Below, piece after piece: positions 827-8,106 of a stretch of 16,355 nucleotides of DNA. Origin of the DNA: a virus; UHGV virus genome UHGV-1564085; one strand, given 5' to 3'. The stretch's first letter is position 1; every line of letters begins with the position of its first letter. The notes below the pieces were generated by a model that was given only the letters and a program-made list of their open reading frames with translations, did not search any database and had not been told where the DNA came from. Made by a program: the position numbers and the translations under genes.

Positions 827-1061
827 AAAACAACTAGTTATACACTTTGTGGGAGCCTATTGGGAACCTGTTATTCTTAGAAAGCATCATTTGCTCATCA
901 CTTCAATTGACCATGGTTAAAGCCAGCTATAAACTTGACAAACGAGGTAACTGGTTGCTTAGGCCCAAGTGGGCACACCATAAGAAGCTCGTGTTGGTGA
1001 TGAAGCAACCCATGAAGTATCGAGAATAATTATAAAGTTCACTATCTTTGAGGTTTCTTAT

Positions 1062-1634
1062 ATGTTTTGCGAAGAAAAAGTAGCTCAAATGGCTGCATAC
1101 CTACTTCTTAAGCGAGGTGGGCGCATGGCATATCTGAAATTGATGAAGTTGCTCTATCTGTCTAACCGCCAGTCGATTTTGAAGCATGGCAGGATGATCG
1201 GCGAAGATAGCCTTTACTCTATGAAATTTGGACCAGTCATGTCGAATACGCTGAACTTGATTCGCGGTAAGGCTGAAGGCATTGGTGACTACTGGTACAA
1301 CTTGATAGAGACGAACGGGCATAATGTATCGTTGCGTTCAGATCCGAGGGAAATGGATGCAGACGAGGTCTTTGATGAATTGAGTCGTGCAGATATCCGG
1401 ATTTTAGATGAAATCTATTCTCGGTATGGGCATATGAACCGATTTGATCTCGCAAATATGACGCATTTAGAAAGCGTTTGTCCAGAGTGGCACGATCCTG
1501 GCAATTCTCGTAAGCCTATAGACCTGAAAGAAATGCTGATCAGTGAGGGTAAAAGCGAGGATGAGGCTAATCGCATAATTGGCAAAATGGAAGAATCTCA
1601 GAAACTTAAGGAATTTTCTTTGCAATTATCATGA
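1062..1634 (+). CDS. Panacea-domain (DUF4065, SocA/GepA-like) protein, putative antitoxin or immunity component
   Basis: ORF track 190 aa; N-terminal motifs AAYLLL, KLMKLLYL and GPV match the remembered DUF4065 signature; GAGG Shine-Dalgarno 9 nt upstream; stop overlaps the next start by 4 bp. Confidence 0.5.
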   Translation: MFCEEKVAQMAAYLLLKRGGRMAYLKLMKLLYLSNRQSILKHGRMIGEDSLYSMKFGPVMSNTLNLIRGKAEGIGDYWYNLIETNGHNVSLRSDPREMDADEVFDELSRADIRILDEIYSRYGHMNRFDLANMTHLESVCPEWHDPGNSRKPIDLKEMLISEGKSEDEANRIIGKMEESQKLKEFSLQLS

Positions 1635-2050
1635 CGGATTATCAGCCATACAGGAAAGGAACTGTGCTTGCCCCAACTGGGCCATGCAATCATCTTCATG
1701 TGATTTGTAATGATCCTGTTTATTACCCCGTTAACGATTGTTATTGTGTTTTAGTTGTTAATATTTCTAGTATCAAGGATGGTGTCCCCCACGATCCGTC
1801 TTGCGTCTTGAATTCTGGTGATCATCGCTTTATCAAGCATCCAAGTTATGTTGTTTACGCTGAAGCTATAATTTGGCGAGTGGATAACATGGTTAGAAAG
1901 CAGCGATCGGGTGAGATTTCTGTTCATGATGATATGCCAGAAGCTACATTCAATAGAATTCTGGACGGTTTTGATATCTCTGATGAAGTTACGCCAAAGA
2001 ACCTTAAATTTAAAAATAAATATTGCGTATCATCTATTGATGATGAGTAA
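1631..2050 (+). CDS. Uncharacterised 139-aa protein coupled to the Panacea-domain gene; candidate toxin or effector partner
   Basis: ORF track 139 aa; ATGA start/stop overlap with the upstream gene (1631..1634); no family recognised from sequence. Confidence 0.5.
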   Translation: MTDYQPYRKGTVLAPTGPCNHLHVICNDPVYYPVNDCYCVLVVNISSIKDGVPHDPSCVLNSGDHRFIKHPSYVVYAEAIIWRVDNMVRKQRSGEISVHDDMPEATFNRILDGFDISDEVTPKNLKFKNKYCVSSIDDE

Positions 2051-5026: not shown

Positions 5027-5851
5027 TCAGGCGGTGAAAGTACCAATAAAGGTTTCTACTTTGCTGTCCTTGAATTTCTCAACAAGCAGATCACGAAATT
5101 CGTTAGCCATTTCTTCCTGCACCGCCTCCAGCTGAATAATGCGCAGAACCAGTACAGGACGATCGCCAGTGATAATGCTGAGGCGTAATTTAAACGGACG
5201 TTCTTTCAGACCTTCAAACGGAACGCATTTAAATTCAAATGCCACTGGCATAATGTCTTTGGTCTTCGCTTCGACAGACTCCATCAGGGAGCGTTTGCCG
5301 CTGAAGTCATTGTCTTCAAAATCAGCGGTCTGGTTCGCTTCAATTGTGATTTTACGGATCGCCGCAGCCGCTTTGGTTGCCTGAATGGCGTCACCATTAG
5401 CATCAAAGCCCACAAGGTAGTCGGCCCAGTCTTCAATCCATTCTGCCAGTGACTTCTGGGAGTTACGCTCGCCATTAACAGACAACAGAGCAGAGAACGG
5501 TGCTGTCTTTTTCAGTTTGAGAGTGGCGGTGTTATCTGCGTGACCTGGTTCATCAATAGTACCCAGGTTAAGCACACTGACTGCTCGCATATTATCGGCA
5601 TCGATAAAGCAGCGGGTGCCTTCATCTGCAAGATCTTTAGAATAACGGGTAAAGTCATCGATGCTGGCAGTGGAAAGCGCACCACGGAAACGGAAGCGAT
5701 TTAAATTAAATTTTTCCAGATCATGAATGCGGAAATTCTCAGGCAATGCCACAGCATCGGCACCAATATTATTGATAATTTCATTAACACCCTGAGCAGA
5801 AATAAGGGCATGGATTTGATTAATTGCGGTTGCGTCTAAGTTCTGAGACAT
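5027..5851 (-). CDS. YfdQ-like (DUF2303) prophage early protein, 274 aa
   Basis: ORF track; GTGAGGA Shine-Dalgarno upstream; size and neighbourhood match yfdQ of CPS-53 (from memory). Confidence 0.5.
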
Positions 5852-5916: not shown

Positions 5917-6279
5917 TTAATGACCTGCTGCGCGGAGTTTTCCGTCAGGTTCACCGGCAAGAGTCAGTAATTGTCCCTGGTCTTCCTGCAGAATAGTCAG
6001 GCGACCACCGCGATTGACATACATCGGCGTTTCGGTGGTGTCTTCTTCGGAAATTTTCCCGCGGTTAGTCGGGCGAACATATGAGAGTTTGTGTTTGATT
6101 TTCACACGGTTCTCATCAAATGGTTCGATTTCCAGGTTGAGTGAGACCTTACCTTTGGTTTTCGTGTTCATCACACCGGAAGCGACTTCACTGAGAACTG
6201 CGCCGATTTTGGTTTCAAATACGCCGCCGTCCAGCTCCCCGATAAATGCCTGCACATCAGTACTGCGTTCGCTAGCCAT
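5917..6279 (-). CDS. Hypothetical prophage early protein (120 aa), YfdP-like
   Basis: Track ORF extends to 6597 but its N-terminal 106 codons are Arg/Pro/Cys-rich and unprotein-like; the ATG at 6279 has GAGGAG 8 nt upstream and yields MASERSTDVQAF... Confidence 0.5.
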   Translation of the reverse strand: MASERSTDVQAFIGELDGGVFETKIGAVLSEVASGVMNTKTKGKVSLNLEIEPFDENRVKIKHKLSYVRPTNRGKISEEDTTETPMYVNRGGRLTILQEDQGQLLTLAGEPDGKLRAAGH

Positions 6280-6327
6280 TTTGCTGCTCCTCATCATATC
6301 GACCCTGCAAGGTCGGTTGGTTTCTCC

Positions 6328-6416
6328 ACAAAACAGAGAAGAACACCTGCGGTGGCAGCCGCCCGGATGGATTGGGTTATGAGCCCGTCGTCCGGTGATG
6401 CTCTTCTCTGTTTTGT
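6328..6416. repeat. Long inverted repeat (15-bp perfect stem acaaaacagagaaga / tcttctctgttttgt, ~59-nt loop) in a 436-bp non-coding region
   Basis: Arms at 6328..6342 and 6402..6416 read directly from the sequence; loop is GC-rich with internal short palindromes. Confidence 0.5.
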
Positions 6417-6716
6417 AAAAAGGACGGTACCAGCCTGAAGCAAGGGTACAAACTGGTACCGCCAGGACTACACACAGCATAAAGTTGTGGTGCCGGGTGC
6501 CTCCCGGTGCCTGGCGAAGGTTGCACACCAGACGGGTGGGTATCCACAGAAGGTCGACTGTCAGCCTCAACCTTAACCCGCGTGCGCTGAGCCGCATTCA
6601 CCACAACGCTAAGGATTCTCTTTGGTTGAAAATACTTAGCTGTTATGTGCCTGTCTTTTCACCACTTCAGGCTCGGTGGTATCCTTTTAAGCCCGTATAC
6701 ATAAAAGGAAAATCAA

Positions 6717-6962
6717 ATGACTTTTGATGAAAAAGAACTTGATAATGCAATTAATAAAATCATCGTAACGTCGCTCTTTTCCTGTCTCAGCGACACTCAG
6801 CAGAAACAGTTCTACGAATCGGCTTTCAACATGATCGAGCGTTGTTGTTTCTGCGATGCCGACGAGTTACCTGAAAAAATCAGGAAACAGTTGGCTGATG
6901 CTCTTCGAGTGCGACTTTCTGACCAATTTTCTGAAATGTACTCTCCGAATTTGGACAAATAG
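6717..6962 (+). CDS. Hypothetical 81-aa protein transcribed antisense to the pL operon; possible lysogen-expressed moron
   Basis: ORF track; AAGGA Shine-Dalgarno 9 nt upstream; protein-like composition; 3' end overlaps the convergent minus-strand ORF. Confidence 0.4.
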   Translation: MTFDEKELDNAINKIIVTSLFSCLSDTQQKQFYESAFNMIERCCFCDADELPEKIRKQLADALRVRLSDQFSEMYSPNLDK

Positions 6963-7155
6963 AAAAAGGCCATTTCCATTCAGGGTCTGATGGAAATACT
7001 TCAGCCTGTTCCAAAGCACGGCGTAAAGAGAACACAACTCCAGCCATAATCTGATGTTTCCCATTGGTCCAGCTATCGCCGCTCTGATCTACAGGGGCGG
7101 CTATGTCGTATGACCAAACGACTTCACAGTTATTGTTTAAAATCTGGACTTTCAT
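6880..7155 (-). CDS. Hypothetical 91-aa protein, first gene downstream of pL (N-equivalent position, but not Arg-rich)
   Basis: ORF track; GGAGG about 12 nt upstream of the ATG at 7153..7155; its last 83 bp overlap the 6717..6962 ORF and contain a hairpin with T-run (6963..6997). Confidence 0.4.
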   Translation of the reverse strand: MKVQILNNNCEVVWSYDIAAPVDQSGDSWTNGKHQIMAGVVFSLRRALEQAEVFPSDPEWKWPFSICPNSESTFQKIGQKVALEEHQPTVS

Positions 7156-7272
7156 TTTGTTCTTTAACCTCCAGATACGGGCGTTTAATTGCCCCGCCGA
7201 ACAGCTCTTTTCCGCAATAGCTGCAATGTCTTTCGCGAATCAGCCTGCGCATTCACCACAACTCTAAAAACA

Positions 7273-7302
7273 AATGTAGGATATCCAACATGCAAGTGTC
7301 AA
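7273..7302 (-). promoter_or_regulatory. pL-like early leftward promoter
   Basis: On the minus strand TTGACA (plus 7297..7302), 18-bp spacer, TACATT (plus 7273..7278); same architecture and near-identical sequence to pR. Confidence 0.55.
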
Positions 7303-7388: not shown

Positions 7389-8042
7389 TCAAAAATCCAT
7401 TATTACTTGTTTGACAAGACCAACTATTCTGCAGTTCTCACCGCATTCAATAGTTTTATAGTTAGGATTTAGTGGGACGAGATACCTGTTCGGCCAGTCC
7501 TCAACAAATTTTTTGAGTGTCGCTTCTTGCCCACCATTGATATGGGCAACAACGATTTTTCCGTTAATACACTCTGTATCAATAATATCTGGCTCTACGA
7601 TAACGATAGAACCTTCTGGTATCGATGGTGAGCCGAGGGGATTGGTCATTGAATCACCACGGACCCGTAGTGCAAATGCCATTTCTGATACAAGGGCGGT
7701 AGTATAAACCCACTCTTCAGCATCTTCTTTCCTGACACCAGGCTCCGTCATTGTCCATGAACCCGCCTGAACCCACGAGATGAGGGGGACTTTTTTAACT
7801 GCGAATATTTCAGGTTTTAGATTTATCTTTGGTTCAGGCGAGCCTTTTCCGCTAACAAGCCACAGAGGATCGCATTTAAGTGCGTTGGCTAGGGCTTGAA
7901 GGTTGGCTCCATTTGGTTGGTAGTCGTCCTTTTCCCATCCAGTAACCGTGACACGGTTCACACCAGTCAAATCAGCCAGTGCTTGTTGTGTCAGGTTCAG
8001 TTCTTTTCGCCTTTGGCGAATACGATCACTCATGTTCATCAT
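7389..8042 (-). CDS. CI-like prophage repressor (N-terminal XRE-type HTH, C-terminal S24 LexA-like autopeptidase)
   Basis: ORF track 217 aa; HTH segment LTQQALADLTGVNRVTV; Ala-Gly cleavage context VQAGSW; catalytic GDSM serine and a downstream lysine; divergent from the cro-like gene with operators between. Confidence 0.8.
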   Translation of the reverse strand: MMNMSDRIRQRRKELNLTQQALADLTGVNRVTVTGWEKDDYQPNGANLQALANALKCDPLWLVSGKGSPEPKINLKPEIFAVKKVPLISWVQAGSWTMTEPGVRKEDAEEWVYTTALVSEMAFALRVRGDSMTNPLGSPSIPEGSIVIVEPDIIDTECINGKIVVAHINGGQEATLKKFVEDWPNRYLVPLNPNYKTIECGENCRIVGLVKQVIMDF

Positions 8043-8106
8043 GTAGGCAATCCTACCACATGCCCATGTAGGATTCTTGACATTGGCATGTTGGATATCC
8101 TACATT
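8041..8106. promoter_or_regulatory. OR operator cluster (8041..8058, 8066..8083, 8089..8106) with pR (-35 TTGACA 8077..8082, -10 TACATT 8101..8106)
   Basis: Three related 18-bp sites spaced 25 and 23 bp centre to centre, overlapping pR -10, pR -35 and the cI start respectively, as in lambda OR1-OR3. Confidence 0.6.

Follow-up and report, generated by a model that had tools for sequence, protein, structure and literature searches.

The 436-bp stretch at positions 6280-6716 of UHGV-1564085 consists of two non-coding RNA modules on the minus strand, and both modules were found independently elsewhere. The whole stretch of DNA that was analyzed, 16,355 nt in length, is referred to below as the window. 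Module 1 is a small-RNA gene, sRNA-17/STnc100-like, in which a 9-bp helix frames a variable interior and an intrinsic terminator forms the end. Module 2 is a three-way-junction RNA (3WJ) with an arm whose tip is identical to part of the initiator tRNA. The 3WJ is a well-supported candidate for an RNA family absent from Rfam, and apparently has not been described before. It is proposed, and we give this an even chance, that the transcript of this two-module minus-strand locus gives rise to a free 3WJ, a small and stable tRNA-like RNA acting in trans. The structure, strand, conservation and contexts of the 3WJ and its identity to tRNA-fMet are established here, and its processing and trans action are inferred from them.

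The region is routinely given as a pseudogene or as small hypothetical proteins, or is left without annotation; the presence of an sRNA gene and a structured RNA corrects these entries, among them plp and upl, two ORFs of phage P1. Three G-C pairs and a CAU loop, the hallmark of the initiator tRNA, are reproduced in the invariant head of the 3WJ. The recurrent link of the 3WJ to phage tRNA arrays raises the question whether temperate phages use mimics of tRNA arms, rather than whole tRNAs, against host tRNA nucleases or in translation control. The findings are also relevant to the organization of, and read-through in, the early-left operon of N-less lambdoid phages.

Organization of the early-left operon

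The window DNA is 99.3% identical to that of phage SfV and represents an N-less lambdoid prophage of the SfV type, with its early-left (pL) operon on the minus strand. The gene order on this strand is cI, pL, orf33, the spacer under study and yfdP; at the N position no N-like gene or N homologue is annotated. A pL-like promoter (TTGACA-18-TACATT, 7273..7302, minus strand) drives the operon holding both RNA modules, and the hexamers of pR (8077-8106, plus strand) are identical to those of this promoter. The first gene downstream of the 3WJ is yfdP (5917..6279, minus strand; 120 aa; phrog_204), identified from RefSeq and from the SfV annotation of 99% identical DNA. The yfdP 5' UTR (6280..6327, minus strand) separates this gene from helix P1 of the 3WJ. 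It contains the conserved GGAGAAAC, which abuts helix P1 on its yfdP side, a small hairpin (6317-6298) and a Shine-Dalgarno sequence, GAGGAG (6292-6287), and a matching layout was found at homologous loci.

DNA matching the region is carried by about half of the complete E. coli genomes (2864 of 5426). Prophage CPS-53 of E. coli K-12 has kept yfdP and lost both RNA modules, and K-12 was therefore dropped as a source of transcript data. The stretch folds better than chance, with z = -6.98 for the minus strand and z = -4.52 for the plus strand, which bears out the structured RNA suggested in the original prediction and places it on the pL strand.

Two further elements of the operon deserve mention. 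The pL leader (7176..7263, minus strand) is fused to orf33 and matches the first 87 nt of sRNA-17 with ~97% identity. The 15-mer GUUGUGGUGAAUGCG is present twice in the window, and its second copy lies in this leader, joined to orf33. The leader was ruled out as a put-like structured RNA, since the fold of 7266-7176 is no better than that of shuffled sequences (z = -0.09). A 35-nt block, ACCACCGAGCCUGAAGUGGUGAAAAGACAGGCA (6646..6680, minus strand), shows ~94% identity with lambda, P22-like phages, HK620 and others, and could represent a promoter, a leftover module or a joint of the mosaic.

Module 1, a small-RNA gene

Module 1, an sRNA-17 allele whose interior is STnc100-like, spans ~6419..6608 on the minus strand, its ends being placed by homology. 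The sRNA-17 of E. coli K1 strain RS218 is a 193-nt RNA mapped by RACE and northern blot, with ends set by the 'full length' primers, CGTTGTGGTGAATGCG... and the reverse complement of ...GGTACCGCTCTTTT (PMC7719688, Table S2). These published primer sequences, together with the mEp460 locus, were used to place sRNA-17. In the mEp460-like prophage of RS218 it occupies the same slot as the window sRNA, which lies between yfdP and the immunity region and on the pL strand. The two RNAs have identical first 20 nt (CGUUGUGGUGAAUGCG...), and share the closing helix, the terminator hairpin, the position of the 3' end and a 3WJ that comes next. The last ~70 nt are conserved in the alignment, and nhmmer matched the window sRNA to mEp460 with E = 1.5e-13 over positions 15-216. 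By its 5' end, its terminator and 3' end, and its slot upstream of yfdP the window gene thus belongs with sRNA-17. The interior of ~100 nt, the northern-oligo body, is however unrelated and does not align, the window allele carrying an STnc100-like set of hairpins instead of that of sRNA-17. The interior sequence of sRNA-17 is found in the window at 7263-7176, immediately past pL.

Folding of module 1 revealed a closing helix of 9 bp, formed by GUUGUGGUG (6607-6599) and CACCACAAC (6492-6484), and four internal hairpins, and the window allele and sRNA-17 have this scaffold fold in common. In phage P1 the closing helix GUUGUGGUG/CACCACAAC is replaced by GUUGCGGUG/CACCGCAAC. The last hairpin shows a compensatory change (CCGGG/CCCGG versus GGUGG/CCACC), and the stem of the terminator also covaries among homologues.

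A scan of the whole window against Rfam at gathering thresholds returned nothing. In a permissive scan the sole notable match was to STnc100 (RF02076) at 6629..6414 on the minus strand, covering model positions 1-206 of 206 with 39.5 bits (E = 7.9e-7), below the gathering cut-off of 47 bits; DicF, ftsZ-DE, a hairpin ribozyme and the like scored at chance level and were discarded. The alignment is full-length and takes in the 3' terminator and the closing helix as well as the conserved hairpin CACCGGGAGGCACCCGG, and the conserved STnc100 blocks UGGUGAAU and CACCGGGAGGCACCCGGCACCA align in the window sRNA with high posterior probability. The relatives from ST64B and phage P1 gave partial matches of 35.1 and 33.4 bits. 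Like STnc100 and PasD, the window sRNA has a multi-hairpin body, a single closing helix, a 3' terminator and a prophage location. The described copies of STnc100 and PasD are late-region genes, neighbours of Q, of lysis genes or of stx (bioRxiv 10.64898/2026.05.13.724894), whereas the window sRNA, apart from its sub-threshold score, differs in being located in the early-left operon.

The gene ends in an intrinsic terminator (6417..6463, minus strand), consisting of a 15-bp stem (6463-6449 with 6437-6423), an 11-nt loop and the U tract CCUUUUU, with a folding energy of -24.4 kcal/mol (z = -5.56). A simple terminator scan missed it because the 11-nt loop exceeds the limit of 8 in that scan. Among homologues the 3' end has been mapped only in RS218, where 3' RACE of sRNA-17 ended at ...GGUACCGCUCUUUU (PMC7719688). 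Both copies of GGTACC lie within this hairpin. They had been predicted to be direct repeats; they are instead (6426-6431 and 6455-6460) the arms of an inverted repeat (CGGTACCAG, 6425-6433; CTGGTACCG, 6453-6461) and belong to the separate terminator of the sRNA. The stretch as a whole, taken to be one element, likewise turned out to be two modules, and the sRNA and the termination element that had been listed as options are both present, as an sRNA-17-type gene and its terminator.

Judged by homology with the mapped sRNA-17, the lysogen probably produces the RNA of module 1, and transcription of the sRNA is probably halted at its terminator ahead of yfdP. The available text on sRNA-17 reports no Rfam homologue, its main text does not mention a terminator and no mention of the 3WJ was found in it; the control by ArcA and the blood-survival phenotypes described there concern the RS218 allele only (PMC7719688).

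Module 2, a three-way-junction RNA

The minimum free energy fold of 6328..6416 on the minus strand is a three-way junction composed of helix P1, arm P2 and hairpin P3, with -45.5 kcal/mol and z = -7.27; none of 200 shuffled sequences folded as well. The arms ACAAAACAGAGAAGA (6328-6342) and TCTTCTCTGTTTTGT (6402-6416) that drew attention to this locus are present exactly as predicted. They can be extended to 25 nt with 84% complementarity, and a perfect inverted repeat of 15 bp is longer than the maximum of 14 bp seen in 2000 simulations (first-order Markov, 437-nt region, loop of at most 100 nt). This 15-bp repeat is the outer part of helix P1, which pairs 6416-6397 with 6347-6328 in 20 contiguous pairs, counting G-U. 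The arms had been thought to enclose a single GC-rich structured loop of ~59 nt. The structure is real, but in place of one loop there are two hairpins, P2 (6395-6363) and P3 (6362-6349), which make a junction with an invariant head.

Compensatory changes support this structure. The alignment of 29 type-A variants has 96% of its cells paired, against 41-49% in slid controls, and 7 pairs are changed on both sides. In the other subfamilies 29 of the 34 pairs are double-changed and the paired fraction is 91%, against 31-43% for the slid controls. The inverted repeat is thus conserved, with covariation, in related prophages, and so survives the refuting condition set with the original prediction. 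Helix P1 is 20 bp long in all type-A variants, and its arms vary freely in sequence with complementarity kept. The conserved part is the asymmetric head of 50-75 nt, in which P2 is invariant in sequence and P3 is a variable hairpin. A core of ~40 nt is nearly invariant from the lambdoids of E. coli to phage P1 and Pantoea. The copies were gathered by sequence patterns fixing GGG, CAU and CCAAUC, so that the invariance of these three motifs is partly by construction; only the two copies of phage P1 were found pattern-free, with the covariance model.

The alignment contains 54 G-U cells versus 7 A-C cells, and therefore only the minus-strand RNA pairs fully. The covariance model R1 gives 110.9 bits for the minus strand, compared with 43.2 bits for the plus strand, and finds a single copy in the window. 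The 3WJ has no match in Rfam, no similarity to nut or put and no credible ORF.

The initiator-tRNA-like tip

The tip of P2, CGGGCUCAUAACCC (6374..6387, minus strand), read from the sequence as three G-C pairs and the 7-nt loop CUCAUAA, is identical in 14 of 14 nt to nucleotides 28-41 of E. coli tRNA-fMet. Each of the 5426 E. coli genomes contains a 100% match to the sequence used for comparison, under the annotation tRNA-Met. The tip thus has the features of an initiator anticodon arm, three G-C pairs and a 7-nt loop with U33-CAU-A37, of which GGG and CAU were fixed in the retrieval patterns. The two outer G-C pairs do not vary among 22 diverged copies; the loop-closing pair is either G-C or G-U. 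The loop itself shows some variation. ST64B and Kp4866-6 have CUCAUUA, with U at position 37, and positions 32 and 38 vary in the copies of the phage P1 type (UUCAUAU, GUCAUAU). Variation at 32, 37 and 38 weakens the case for strict mimicry of tRNA-fMet.

RNAs other than tRNAs that show an exact tRNA anticodon stem-loop, as the 3WJ does, are known from the thrS operator, and phage tRNAs can counter anticodon nucleases. Some 3WJ copies resemble phage tRNA-like RNAs in lying inside tRNA arrays and ending in NCCA. The 3WJ is not a tRNA, however: it has no cloverleaf and no D or T loops, and the P2 arm, with ~10 pairs and two internal loops, is about twice as long as an anticodon arm. ARAGORN found no tRNA or tmRNA in the whole window and called none of the 3WJ copies (window and type-A loci) a tRNA, and the Rfam tRNA model did not match the window. 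Relaxed and intron-allowing runs called neither the 3WJ nor the window sRNA a tRNA; a relaxed 'mtRNA-Pro' call on the 3WJ was on the wrong strand and meaningless.

Distribution and genomic contexts

The 3WJ, with compensatory changes, occurs in lambdoid prophages of more than 20 species of Enterobacterales, in Klebsiella phages and, in two copies, in phage P1. Type-A copies always precede the first ORF of the operon, yfdP-like or rdgC-like, by 45-60 nt and in the same orientation, and are followed by the conserved GGAGAAAC, a small GC hairpin and a Shine-Dalgarno sequence. In a Mixta prophage the 3WJ begins ~20 nt past the predicted pL start. The copies in Klebsiella phages come directly after the last tRNA of the late-operon array; their helix P1 has 6 bp (GGCCUG/CAGGCC), is followed by GCCA or ACCA, and lacks a U tract. 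In phage P1 the two copies follow tRNA-Asn and tRNA-Thr, and each continues into a scaffold resembling sRNA-17 or STnc100. The ORFs plp and upl of this phage are antisense to the same RNA modules. At one locus the place of the sRNA is taken by a tRNA-Met(CAU)-like gene that carries a 46-nt insertion and whose acceptor stem overlaps the closing helix of the scaffold (UUGUGGU/ACCACAA).

Proposed role of the three-way junction

The 3WJ is transcribed only upon read-through of the sRNA terminator, or directly from pL in phages where it comes first after the promoter. In the mechanism that we propose, it would then be cut free from the operon transcript to give a small, stable, tRNA-like RNA. Copies of the window type may be released by RNase III cutting within the long helix P1; a length of 20 bp suits this enzyme. 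The Klebsiella-phage copies, with a 6-bp stem and NCCA directly after tRNA genes, may be freed by tRNA-processing enzymes. Once released, the RNA would exert its effect in trans by way of the tRNA-fMet-like arm, for instance by serving as a decoy for a factor recognizing the initiator anticodon arm.

A more far-reaching version, which is improbable in our estimation, holds that the 3WJ represents a new class of phage ncRNA, a compact mimic of the initiator anticodon arm in tRNA-derived modules, whose early expression by temperate phages of Enterobacterales, lambdoids and P1 included, would titrate or jam a host factor recognizing tRNA-fMet. The sRNA-17/STnc100 scaffolds and the 3WJ would together form 'tRNA-scaffold' cassettes displaying exchangeable RNA cargo. 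As a speculation, the most attractive target of such a decoy would be a VapC-type toxin that cleaves tRNA-fMet, acting as an abortive-infection nuclease. VapC of Shigella and Salmonella cleaves tRNA-fMet in the anticodon loop (PMC4705866).

The rival that was ranked almost equally likely to a released trans-acting RNA, tentative as it is, holds that the 3WJ is a cis-acting early-left leader that sets the expression of yfdP and the genes behind it. It could do so by protecting the 5' end of the mRNA, by modulating translation initiation, or by a put- or attenuator-like modification of RNA polymerase or Rho allowing xis and int to be reached. The fixed short distance and orientation of type-A copies relative to the first ORF, with the conserved GGAGAAAC, fit such a leader no less well. 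No lambda-type nut site lies between pL and yfdP, in line with the original prediction: the minus strand from 7270 to 6280 holds no boxA (YGCUCUUWAA)-like match, and no boxB-like match occurs anywhere in the window. In its location the 3WJ does resemble lambda nutL, as both precede the early-left genes on the pL transcript. With neither a nut site nor an annotated N-like gene, an alternative antitermination device would be needed.

The put RNAs of HK022 are such devices, cis-acting antiterminators in an N-less lambdoid phage (PMC9378689). Both put and the 3WJ are structured early-left RNAs of 70-90 nt in lambdoid phages without lambda-type nut sites, and putL lies right after pL, where the Mixta relative of the 3WJ is also found (PMC9378689). 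However, put is made of two stem-loops (~70 nt) and the window RNA is a three-way junction. Sequence identity to HK022 put was rejected, as blastn-short against the HK022 immunity region gave chance-level matches and the putL region, read directly, showed no likeness. A 10-nt match to an arm of helix P1 in HK022 lies inside the nun region and is due to chance.

Other observations speak against a cis-acting leader more generally. The window has no second copy behind pR, and its 3WJ lies downstream of the sRNA terminator, so that it cannot aid polymerase past that terminator. The copies of Klebsiella phages and phage P1 lie among tRNA and sRNA genes without an ORF at a fixed distance, and a helix P1 of 20 bp is too stable for a switching helix. 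Pairing of the 3' strand of helix P1 with the Shine-Dalgarno sequence (CUUCUC versus GAGGAG) was considered by eye and dropped, as it fits the window but not the Klebsiella-type homologues. The 96-fold increase in yfdP mRNA in the sRNA-17 deletion mutant of RS218 (PMC7719688) was not used as evidence for control in cis: the fate and orientation of the resistance cassette are not stated there and the deletion keeps most of the terminator, which makes the increase uninterpretable in this respect.

An unlikely reading is that the 3WJ and the sRNA scaffold are remnants of phage tRNA genes in decay that persist mainly as homologous joints for mosaic recombination, with no function as RNA. Mosaic breakpoints do coincide with the module borders, many phages sharing only 6200-6464 and others 6200-6679. 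The duplicated 15-mer, once joined to orf33, the tRNA-Met-like gene still present in one homologous slot and the loss of both modules from CPS-53 with yfdP kept are further points in favour of relics. However, compensatory changes preserve all three helices across subfamilies with little common sequence outside the core, which itself is nearly invariant across these phages. Together these point to purifying selection on the RNA.

Still less probable is that the inverted repeat serves as a second, possibly bidirectional, intrinsic terminator (tL-type) backing that of the sRNA. It is directly behind another terminator, and ACAAAAC upstream and GUUUUGU downstream would give a U-rich tract after a strong hairpin in either direction. 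This tract is, however, inside the helix and is interrupted in most homologues (UGUUGUGU). An invariant branched head would be superfluous for a terminator, the Klebsiella-phage copies have a 6-bp helix P1 without a U tract, and the Mixta operon would stop 130 nt past its promoter. The 96-fold increase in yfdP mRNA, in a strain with an altered upstream region, indicates moreover that transcripts can pass the inverted repeat (PMC7719688).

A role of the inverted repeat as DNA, in the form of a protein-binding palindrome, a cruciform or a recombination site, hardly deserves credence. The perfect 15-bp palindromic pair and a protein-binding option in the original prediction speak for it; the excess of G-U over A-C cells, with pairing complete only in the minus-strand transcript, the strand-specific R1 scores and arms that drift while complementarity and an asymmetric head are kept speak against it.

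Coding readings can practically be set aside. The candidates are a 49-aa ORF (6294-6443, minus strand), a version of yfdP extended in frame at its N terminus to 6597, and a plus-strand ORF of 19 codons from 6379, the ATG of which lies within the most conserved block. PGAP and some phage records annotate proteins here, and the 49-aa ORF matches a small PHROG, phrog_33599. However, none of the ORFs in 6280-6716 has a Pfam match, and the PHROG match is uninformative, being to a family of unknown function and covering residues 8-43 only, over the ncRNA. The PGAP call is a 'frameshifted hypothetical' pseudogene, and P3, which lies inside the minus-strand spacer ORF, differs among homologous copies by indels of 1, 2 and 3 nt. 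Compensatory substitutions and the G-U asymmetry are not explained by coding, and the strong Shine-Dalgarno sequence is at the annotated yfdP start. The stretch is thus non-coding, as originally predicted. The adjoining flank, 6717-6962 on the plus strand, has a full-length match to phrog_3311 and, judged from this match, does look like a genuine gene.

Position in the early-left operon

The DNA around the spacer (6280-6716) is 99.3 % identical to Shigella phage SfV over 601 bases, and matches to this 601-base region occur in 2864 of 5426 complete E. coli genomes; in 510 of these they cover at least 80 % of the query. In SfV and RefSeq the minus-strand gene order is cI (8042..7389), orf33 (7155..6880), spacer, yfdP (6279..5917) and yfdQ (5851..5027). 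The YfdP-like gene of the original prediction is indeed yfdP, downstream of the spacer, and its "N-position ORF" corresponds to orf33, a phrog_3195 member of unknown function. A promoter-like site resembling pL was found by sequence match at 7302..7273 on the minus strand (TTGACA-18-TACATT). From this site and the gene order, the spacer falls within the early-left (pL) transcription unit, so that the minus strand is the one to read. A pR-like promoter at 8077-8106 (plus strand, TTGACA-18-TACATT) has identical hexamers; the two promoter spacers are nearly identical (TTGCATGTTGGATATCC for pL versus TTGGCATGTTGGATATCC for pR) and both contain CATGT...ACAT operator-like repeats. A search for a lambda nut site found none, in line with the earlier failure to recognise boxA or boxB, and no similarity to the HK022 put RNA was found.

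That the spacer encodes a small protein is unlikely. The PGAP pseudogene call, indels in homologues and searches of Pfam and PHROG gave no convincing evidence of coding, as had been concluded from the sequence. PGAP annotates 6294-6604 (minus strand) as a "frameshifted hypothetical protein" pseudogene in near-identical genomes, and several phage records carry small hypothetical proteins (phrog_33599) there; lying over two non-coding RNAs, these protein calls are probably mis-annotations.

A conserved three-way-junction RNA

The spacer harbours on its minus strand a three-way junction that is strongly conserved, bears an arm like that of initiator tRNA and occurs in three kinds of genomic context. 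An inverted-repeat search recovered the two 15-nt arms exactly where they had been reported (6328..6342 and 6402..6416); a perfect 15-bp inverted repeat with a loop of at most 100 nt occurred in 0 of 2000 Markov-simulated 437-mers. As minus-strand RNA the helix extends beyond these 15 to 20 contiguous pairs, and the presumed ~59-nt loop is no loop: the repeat (helix P1, 6416-6397 with 6347-6328) closes a junction with two further helices in the computed fold. Helix P2 (6395-6363) has a 5-bp base, two small internal loops and then GGG-CUCAUAA-CCC; helix P3 (6362-6349) is GCGG-CUGCCA-CCGC. The fold of the 89-nt element (6416..6328) has an energy of -45.5 kcal/mol (z = -7.27), and the whole spacer has z = -6.98 against shuffles on the minus strand and -4.52 on the plus strand, which bears out the structured-RNA option raised earlier. 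The other option, a DNA site for protein binding, is unlikely. Counted by cell, the junction helices show 54 G-U pairs versus 7 A-C juxtapositions, so that pairing is complete only in the minus-strand transcript, which favours an RNA over a DNA palindrome.

At least 120 junction loci were retrieved from viral contigs by core pattern, and 24 more from a set with one genome per species, covering Escherichia, Shigella, Citrobacter, Enterobacter, Kosakonia, Mixta, Leclercia, Phytobacter, Pseudescherichia, Raoultella, Pseudocitrobacter, Erwinia, Pantoea, Buttiauxella, Klebsiella and one record labelled Chryseobacterium. Both sets together hold at least 57 distinct variants among the matches listed. 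The original prediction hung on conservation of the inverted repeat in related prophages; the repeat is kept there, with changes on both sides. Among short-P3 variants (n = 29), 96 % of cells hold standard pairs and 7 pairs are changed on both sides, while sliding the partner by 1-3 columns lowers pairing to 41-49 %. The covariance model R1, built on this 29-variant alignment, scored 110.9 bits on the minus strand of the window versus 43.2 on the plus strand and found no second copy in the window. In 22 copies from other subfamilies, 29 of 34 pairs are changed on both sides and 91 % of cells are paired versus 31-43 % in slid controls, in an alignment that was fitted to R1 and hence favours the structure. 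Even allowing for this fitting, helix sequences differ almost completely between subfamilies; the P2 base, for example, is CCGGA/UCCGG, CCGGG/CCCGG, CCAGG/CCUGG, CCUGAUG/CAUCAGG or CACUGAAU/AUUCAG. Rfam contains no model of the junction and targeted literature searches found no published description. It appears to be an undescribed RNA family within the broad, known class of tRNA-like or leader RNAs of phages.

Likeness to initiator tRNA

A block of ~40 nt, CAYCACCGGRYGACGGGCUCAUAAYCCAAUCCAYCCGGGCG, is almost invariant in copies of the window's type (type A), while helices P1 and P3 drift. Copies of phage P1 type and those following tRNA arrays in Klebsiella phages (type B) keep only the central ~20 nt, ACGGGNUCAUANYCCAAUCYA. 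The P2 tip CGGGCUCAUAACCC (6387..6374) reproduces nt 28-41 of the E. coli initiator tRNA without a mismatch; the tRNA-fMet sequence used for comparison was confirmed by 100 % matches to genes for tRNA-Met in all 5426 genomes. A CAU anticodon loop closed by three consecutive G-C pairs is the hallmark of initiator tRNAs. In diverged copies the two outer G-C pairs of the tip never vary and the loop-adjacent pair is G-C or G-U, an invariance that is partly by construction as the retrieval patterns fixed GGG, CAU and CCAAUC. Two phage P1 copies, found by R1 in a locus fetched for another reason, also keep GGG, UCAUA and CCC. The tip loop varies at positions 32, 37 and 38 (CUCAUUA, UUCAUAU, GUCAUAU). 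With tRNA finders, neither the junction nor the window sRNA is called a tRNA.

An sRNA gene upstream of the junction

The Rfam scan proposed earlier gave a result for the upstream part of the spacer and none for the junction. Permissive scanning of the window yielded one significant match, to STnc100 (RF02076; 6629..6414, minus strand, model 1-206 of 206, E = 7.9e-7), at 39.5 bits, below the gathering cut-off of 47 bits. Both STnc100 and its relative PasD are sRNAs of prophages, described from positions close to Q, lysis genes or stx. A close relative, sRNA-17 of E. coli K1 RS218, is expressed in lysogens: the mapping data of its report describe a 193-nt RNA of an mEp460-like prophage, with ends determined by 5'/3' RACE and northern blot and "full length" primers giving CGTTGTGGTGAATGCGCAGG... 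and ...GGTACCGCTCTTTT (PMC7719688). In phage mEp460 this very sequence fills the slot upstream of yfdP. The window RNA shares with sRNA-17 the first 20 nt, the closing helix GUUGUGGUG/CACCACAAC, the terminator and the scaffold, in which one helix closes a set of hairpins, the last abutting the 3' strand; its interior, however, is unlike that of sRNA-17 and STnc100-like instead. By homology the window sRNA would extend from about 6608 to 6419 (minus strand). The GGTACC repeats, read earlier as direct, actually form an inverted repeat, giving on the minus strand a 15-bp stem followed by CCUUUUU. Among homologues, which include those of Salmonella ST64B, of Klebsiella and of other genera, compensatory changes keep the sRNA hairpins (for example CCGGG-AGGCA-CCCGG versus GGUGG-AGGCA-CCACC), and the terminator stem covaries too. 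In the phage P1 scaffold GUUGCGGUG/CACCGCAAC stands where the closing helix otherwise has GUUGUGGUG/CACCACAAC. This element is a new allele of a known kind of prophage sRNA. Its terminator stands between pL and yfdP in an N-less phage.

Genomic contexts of the junction

In type A the junction follows the sRNA terminator and precedes the first early-left ORF (yfdP-like or rdgC-like), with a conserved GGAGAAAC, a small hairpin and a Shine-Dalgarno sequence in between. A Mixta tenebrionis prophage (L136, 689-2991) has the order cI-like repressor, terminator, promoter TTGATT-18-TATAGT, junction, yfdP-like, yfdQ-like. Here the junction, starting ~20 nt after the predicted transcription start, itself forms the 5' leader of the early-left operon and therefore does not need the sRNA. 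Both modules have been lost from CPS-53 of E. coli K-12 (L155, 2740-3120), which keeps yfdP with the same Shine-Dalgarno; tandem repeats of type GATTTTGACGGGTCA stand upstream of yfdP instead in this MG1655 locus.

Type B copies lie 6 nt after the last tRNA of a late-operon array downstream of Q, and their 6-bp helix P1 (GGCCUG/CAGGCC) is followed by GCCA or ACCA. In the C1-controlled ban operon, phage P1 and P1-like elements carry two copies, located after tRNA-Asn and tRNA-Thr. Each copy's helix P1 continues with its 3' strand into the scaffold 5' strand (GUUGUGGUGAAU...), sRNA-17-like or STnc100-like, so the same two modules travel together in either order. Phage P1 (AF234173, L003) has three tandem units between tRNA-Thr and tciA (926-1640, plus strand), each consisting of a head element with a long stem and, behind it, a GUUGUGG...CCACAAC scaffold; two of the three heads are the junction copies (1151-1248 and 1428-1508, plus strand), and an STnc100-like scaffold was matched by Rfam at 1504-1623 (plus strand). 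The units run antisense to plp and upl, two annotated ORFs that may be spurious.

In an IMG/VR contig (L105) the sRNA slot, ~120-250 nt upstream of the junction, is occupied by a gene resembling tRNA-Met(CAU). It has canonical D and T arms, encodes the CCA and carries a 46-nt insertion; its acceptor stem and the closing helix of the scaffold overlap (UUGUGGU/ACCACAA). Together with the acceptor-like stem plus NCCA of type B, this gene suggests a phage tRNA origin for both modules. Several Klebsiella-type loci show more tRNA-like calls with insertions upstream, and L087, L099, L125 and L126 carry "tRNA-Glu with 44-nt intron" calls further upstream.

Possible function

The junction may be excised as a small stable RNA, with RNase III cutting the 20-bp helix P1 in type A and tRNA-processing enzymes acting in type B, and the released RNA would work through its tRNA-fMet-like arm. 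For this proposal as a whole the scales are about level; action in trans, taken by itself, is rated lower. Enteric VapC toxins cleave tRNA-fMet in exactly the anticodon loop that the junction tip copies (review PMC4705866), and a role as decoy against VapC is therefore conceivable. The main rival, which we consider doubtful, is a cis-acting leader that controls the yfdP operon at the level of stability, translation or read-through. Such a leader is favoured by the arrangement in Mixta and by the junction's fixed place ahead of the first ORF, but the tRNA-array and phage P1 contexts argue against it. A plain terminator and a functionless relic are both unlikely.

Mosaic joints and neighbouring elements

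Directly after pL, 7263..7176 (minus strand) is ~97 % identical to the first 87 nt of sRNA-17 and fused to orf33; the fold of this leader fragment is not unusually structured. Since sRNA-17 interior is also present there, the scaffold ends behave as mosaic joints, in agreement with breakpoints of database matches, many phages sharing only 6200-6464 or 6200-6679. The 15-mer GUUGUGGUGAAUGCG occurs twice in the operon (7262-7248 and 6607-6593) and marks a recombination joint. A 35-nt block (6646-6680, minus strand) recurs at ~94 % identity in many phages, among them lambda, P22-like phages and HK620, and is possibly a promoter, a remnant module or a mosaic joint. Its copy in Lambda_ev058 stands between sieB and ea10; another short unit, ending in a terminator, comes next. 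Finally, an 81-aa ORF at 6717-6962 (plus strand) matches phrog_3311 over its full length (E = 3e-55); neither the SfV annotation nor that of PGAP for 99 % identical DNA lists it. Convergent with orf33 (6880-7155, minus strand), it overlaps the orf33 3' end by 83 nt and looks like a rightward "moron"-type gene embedded in the pL operon.
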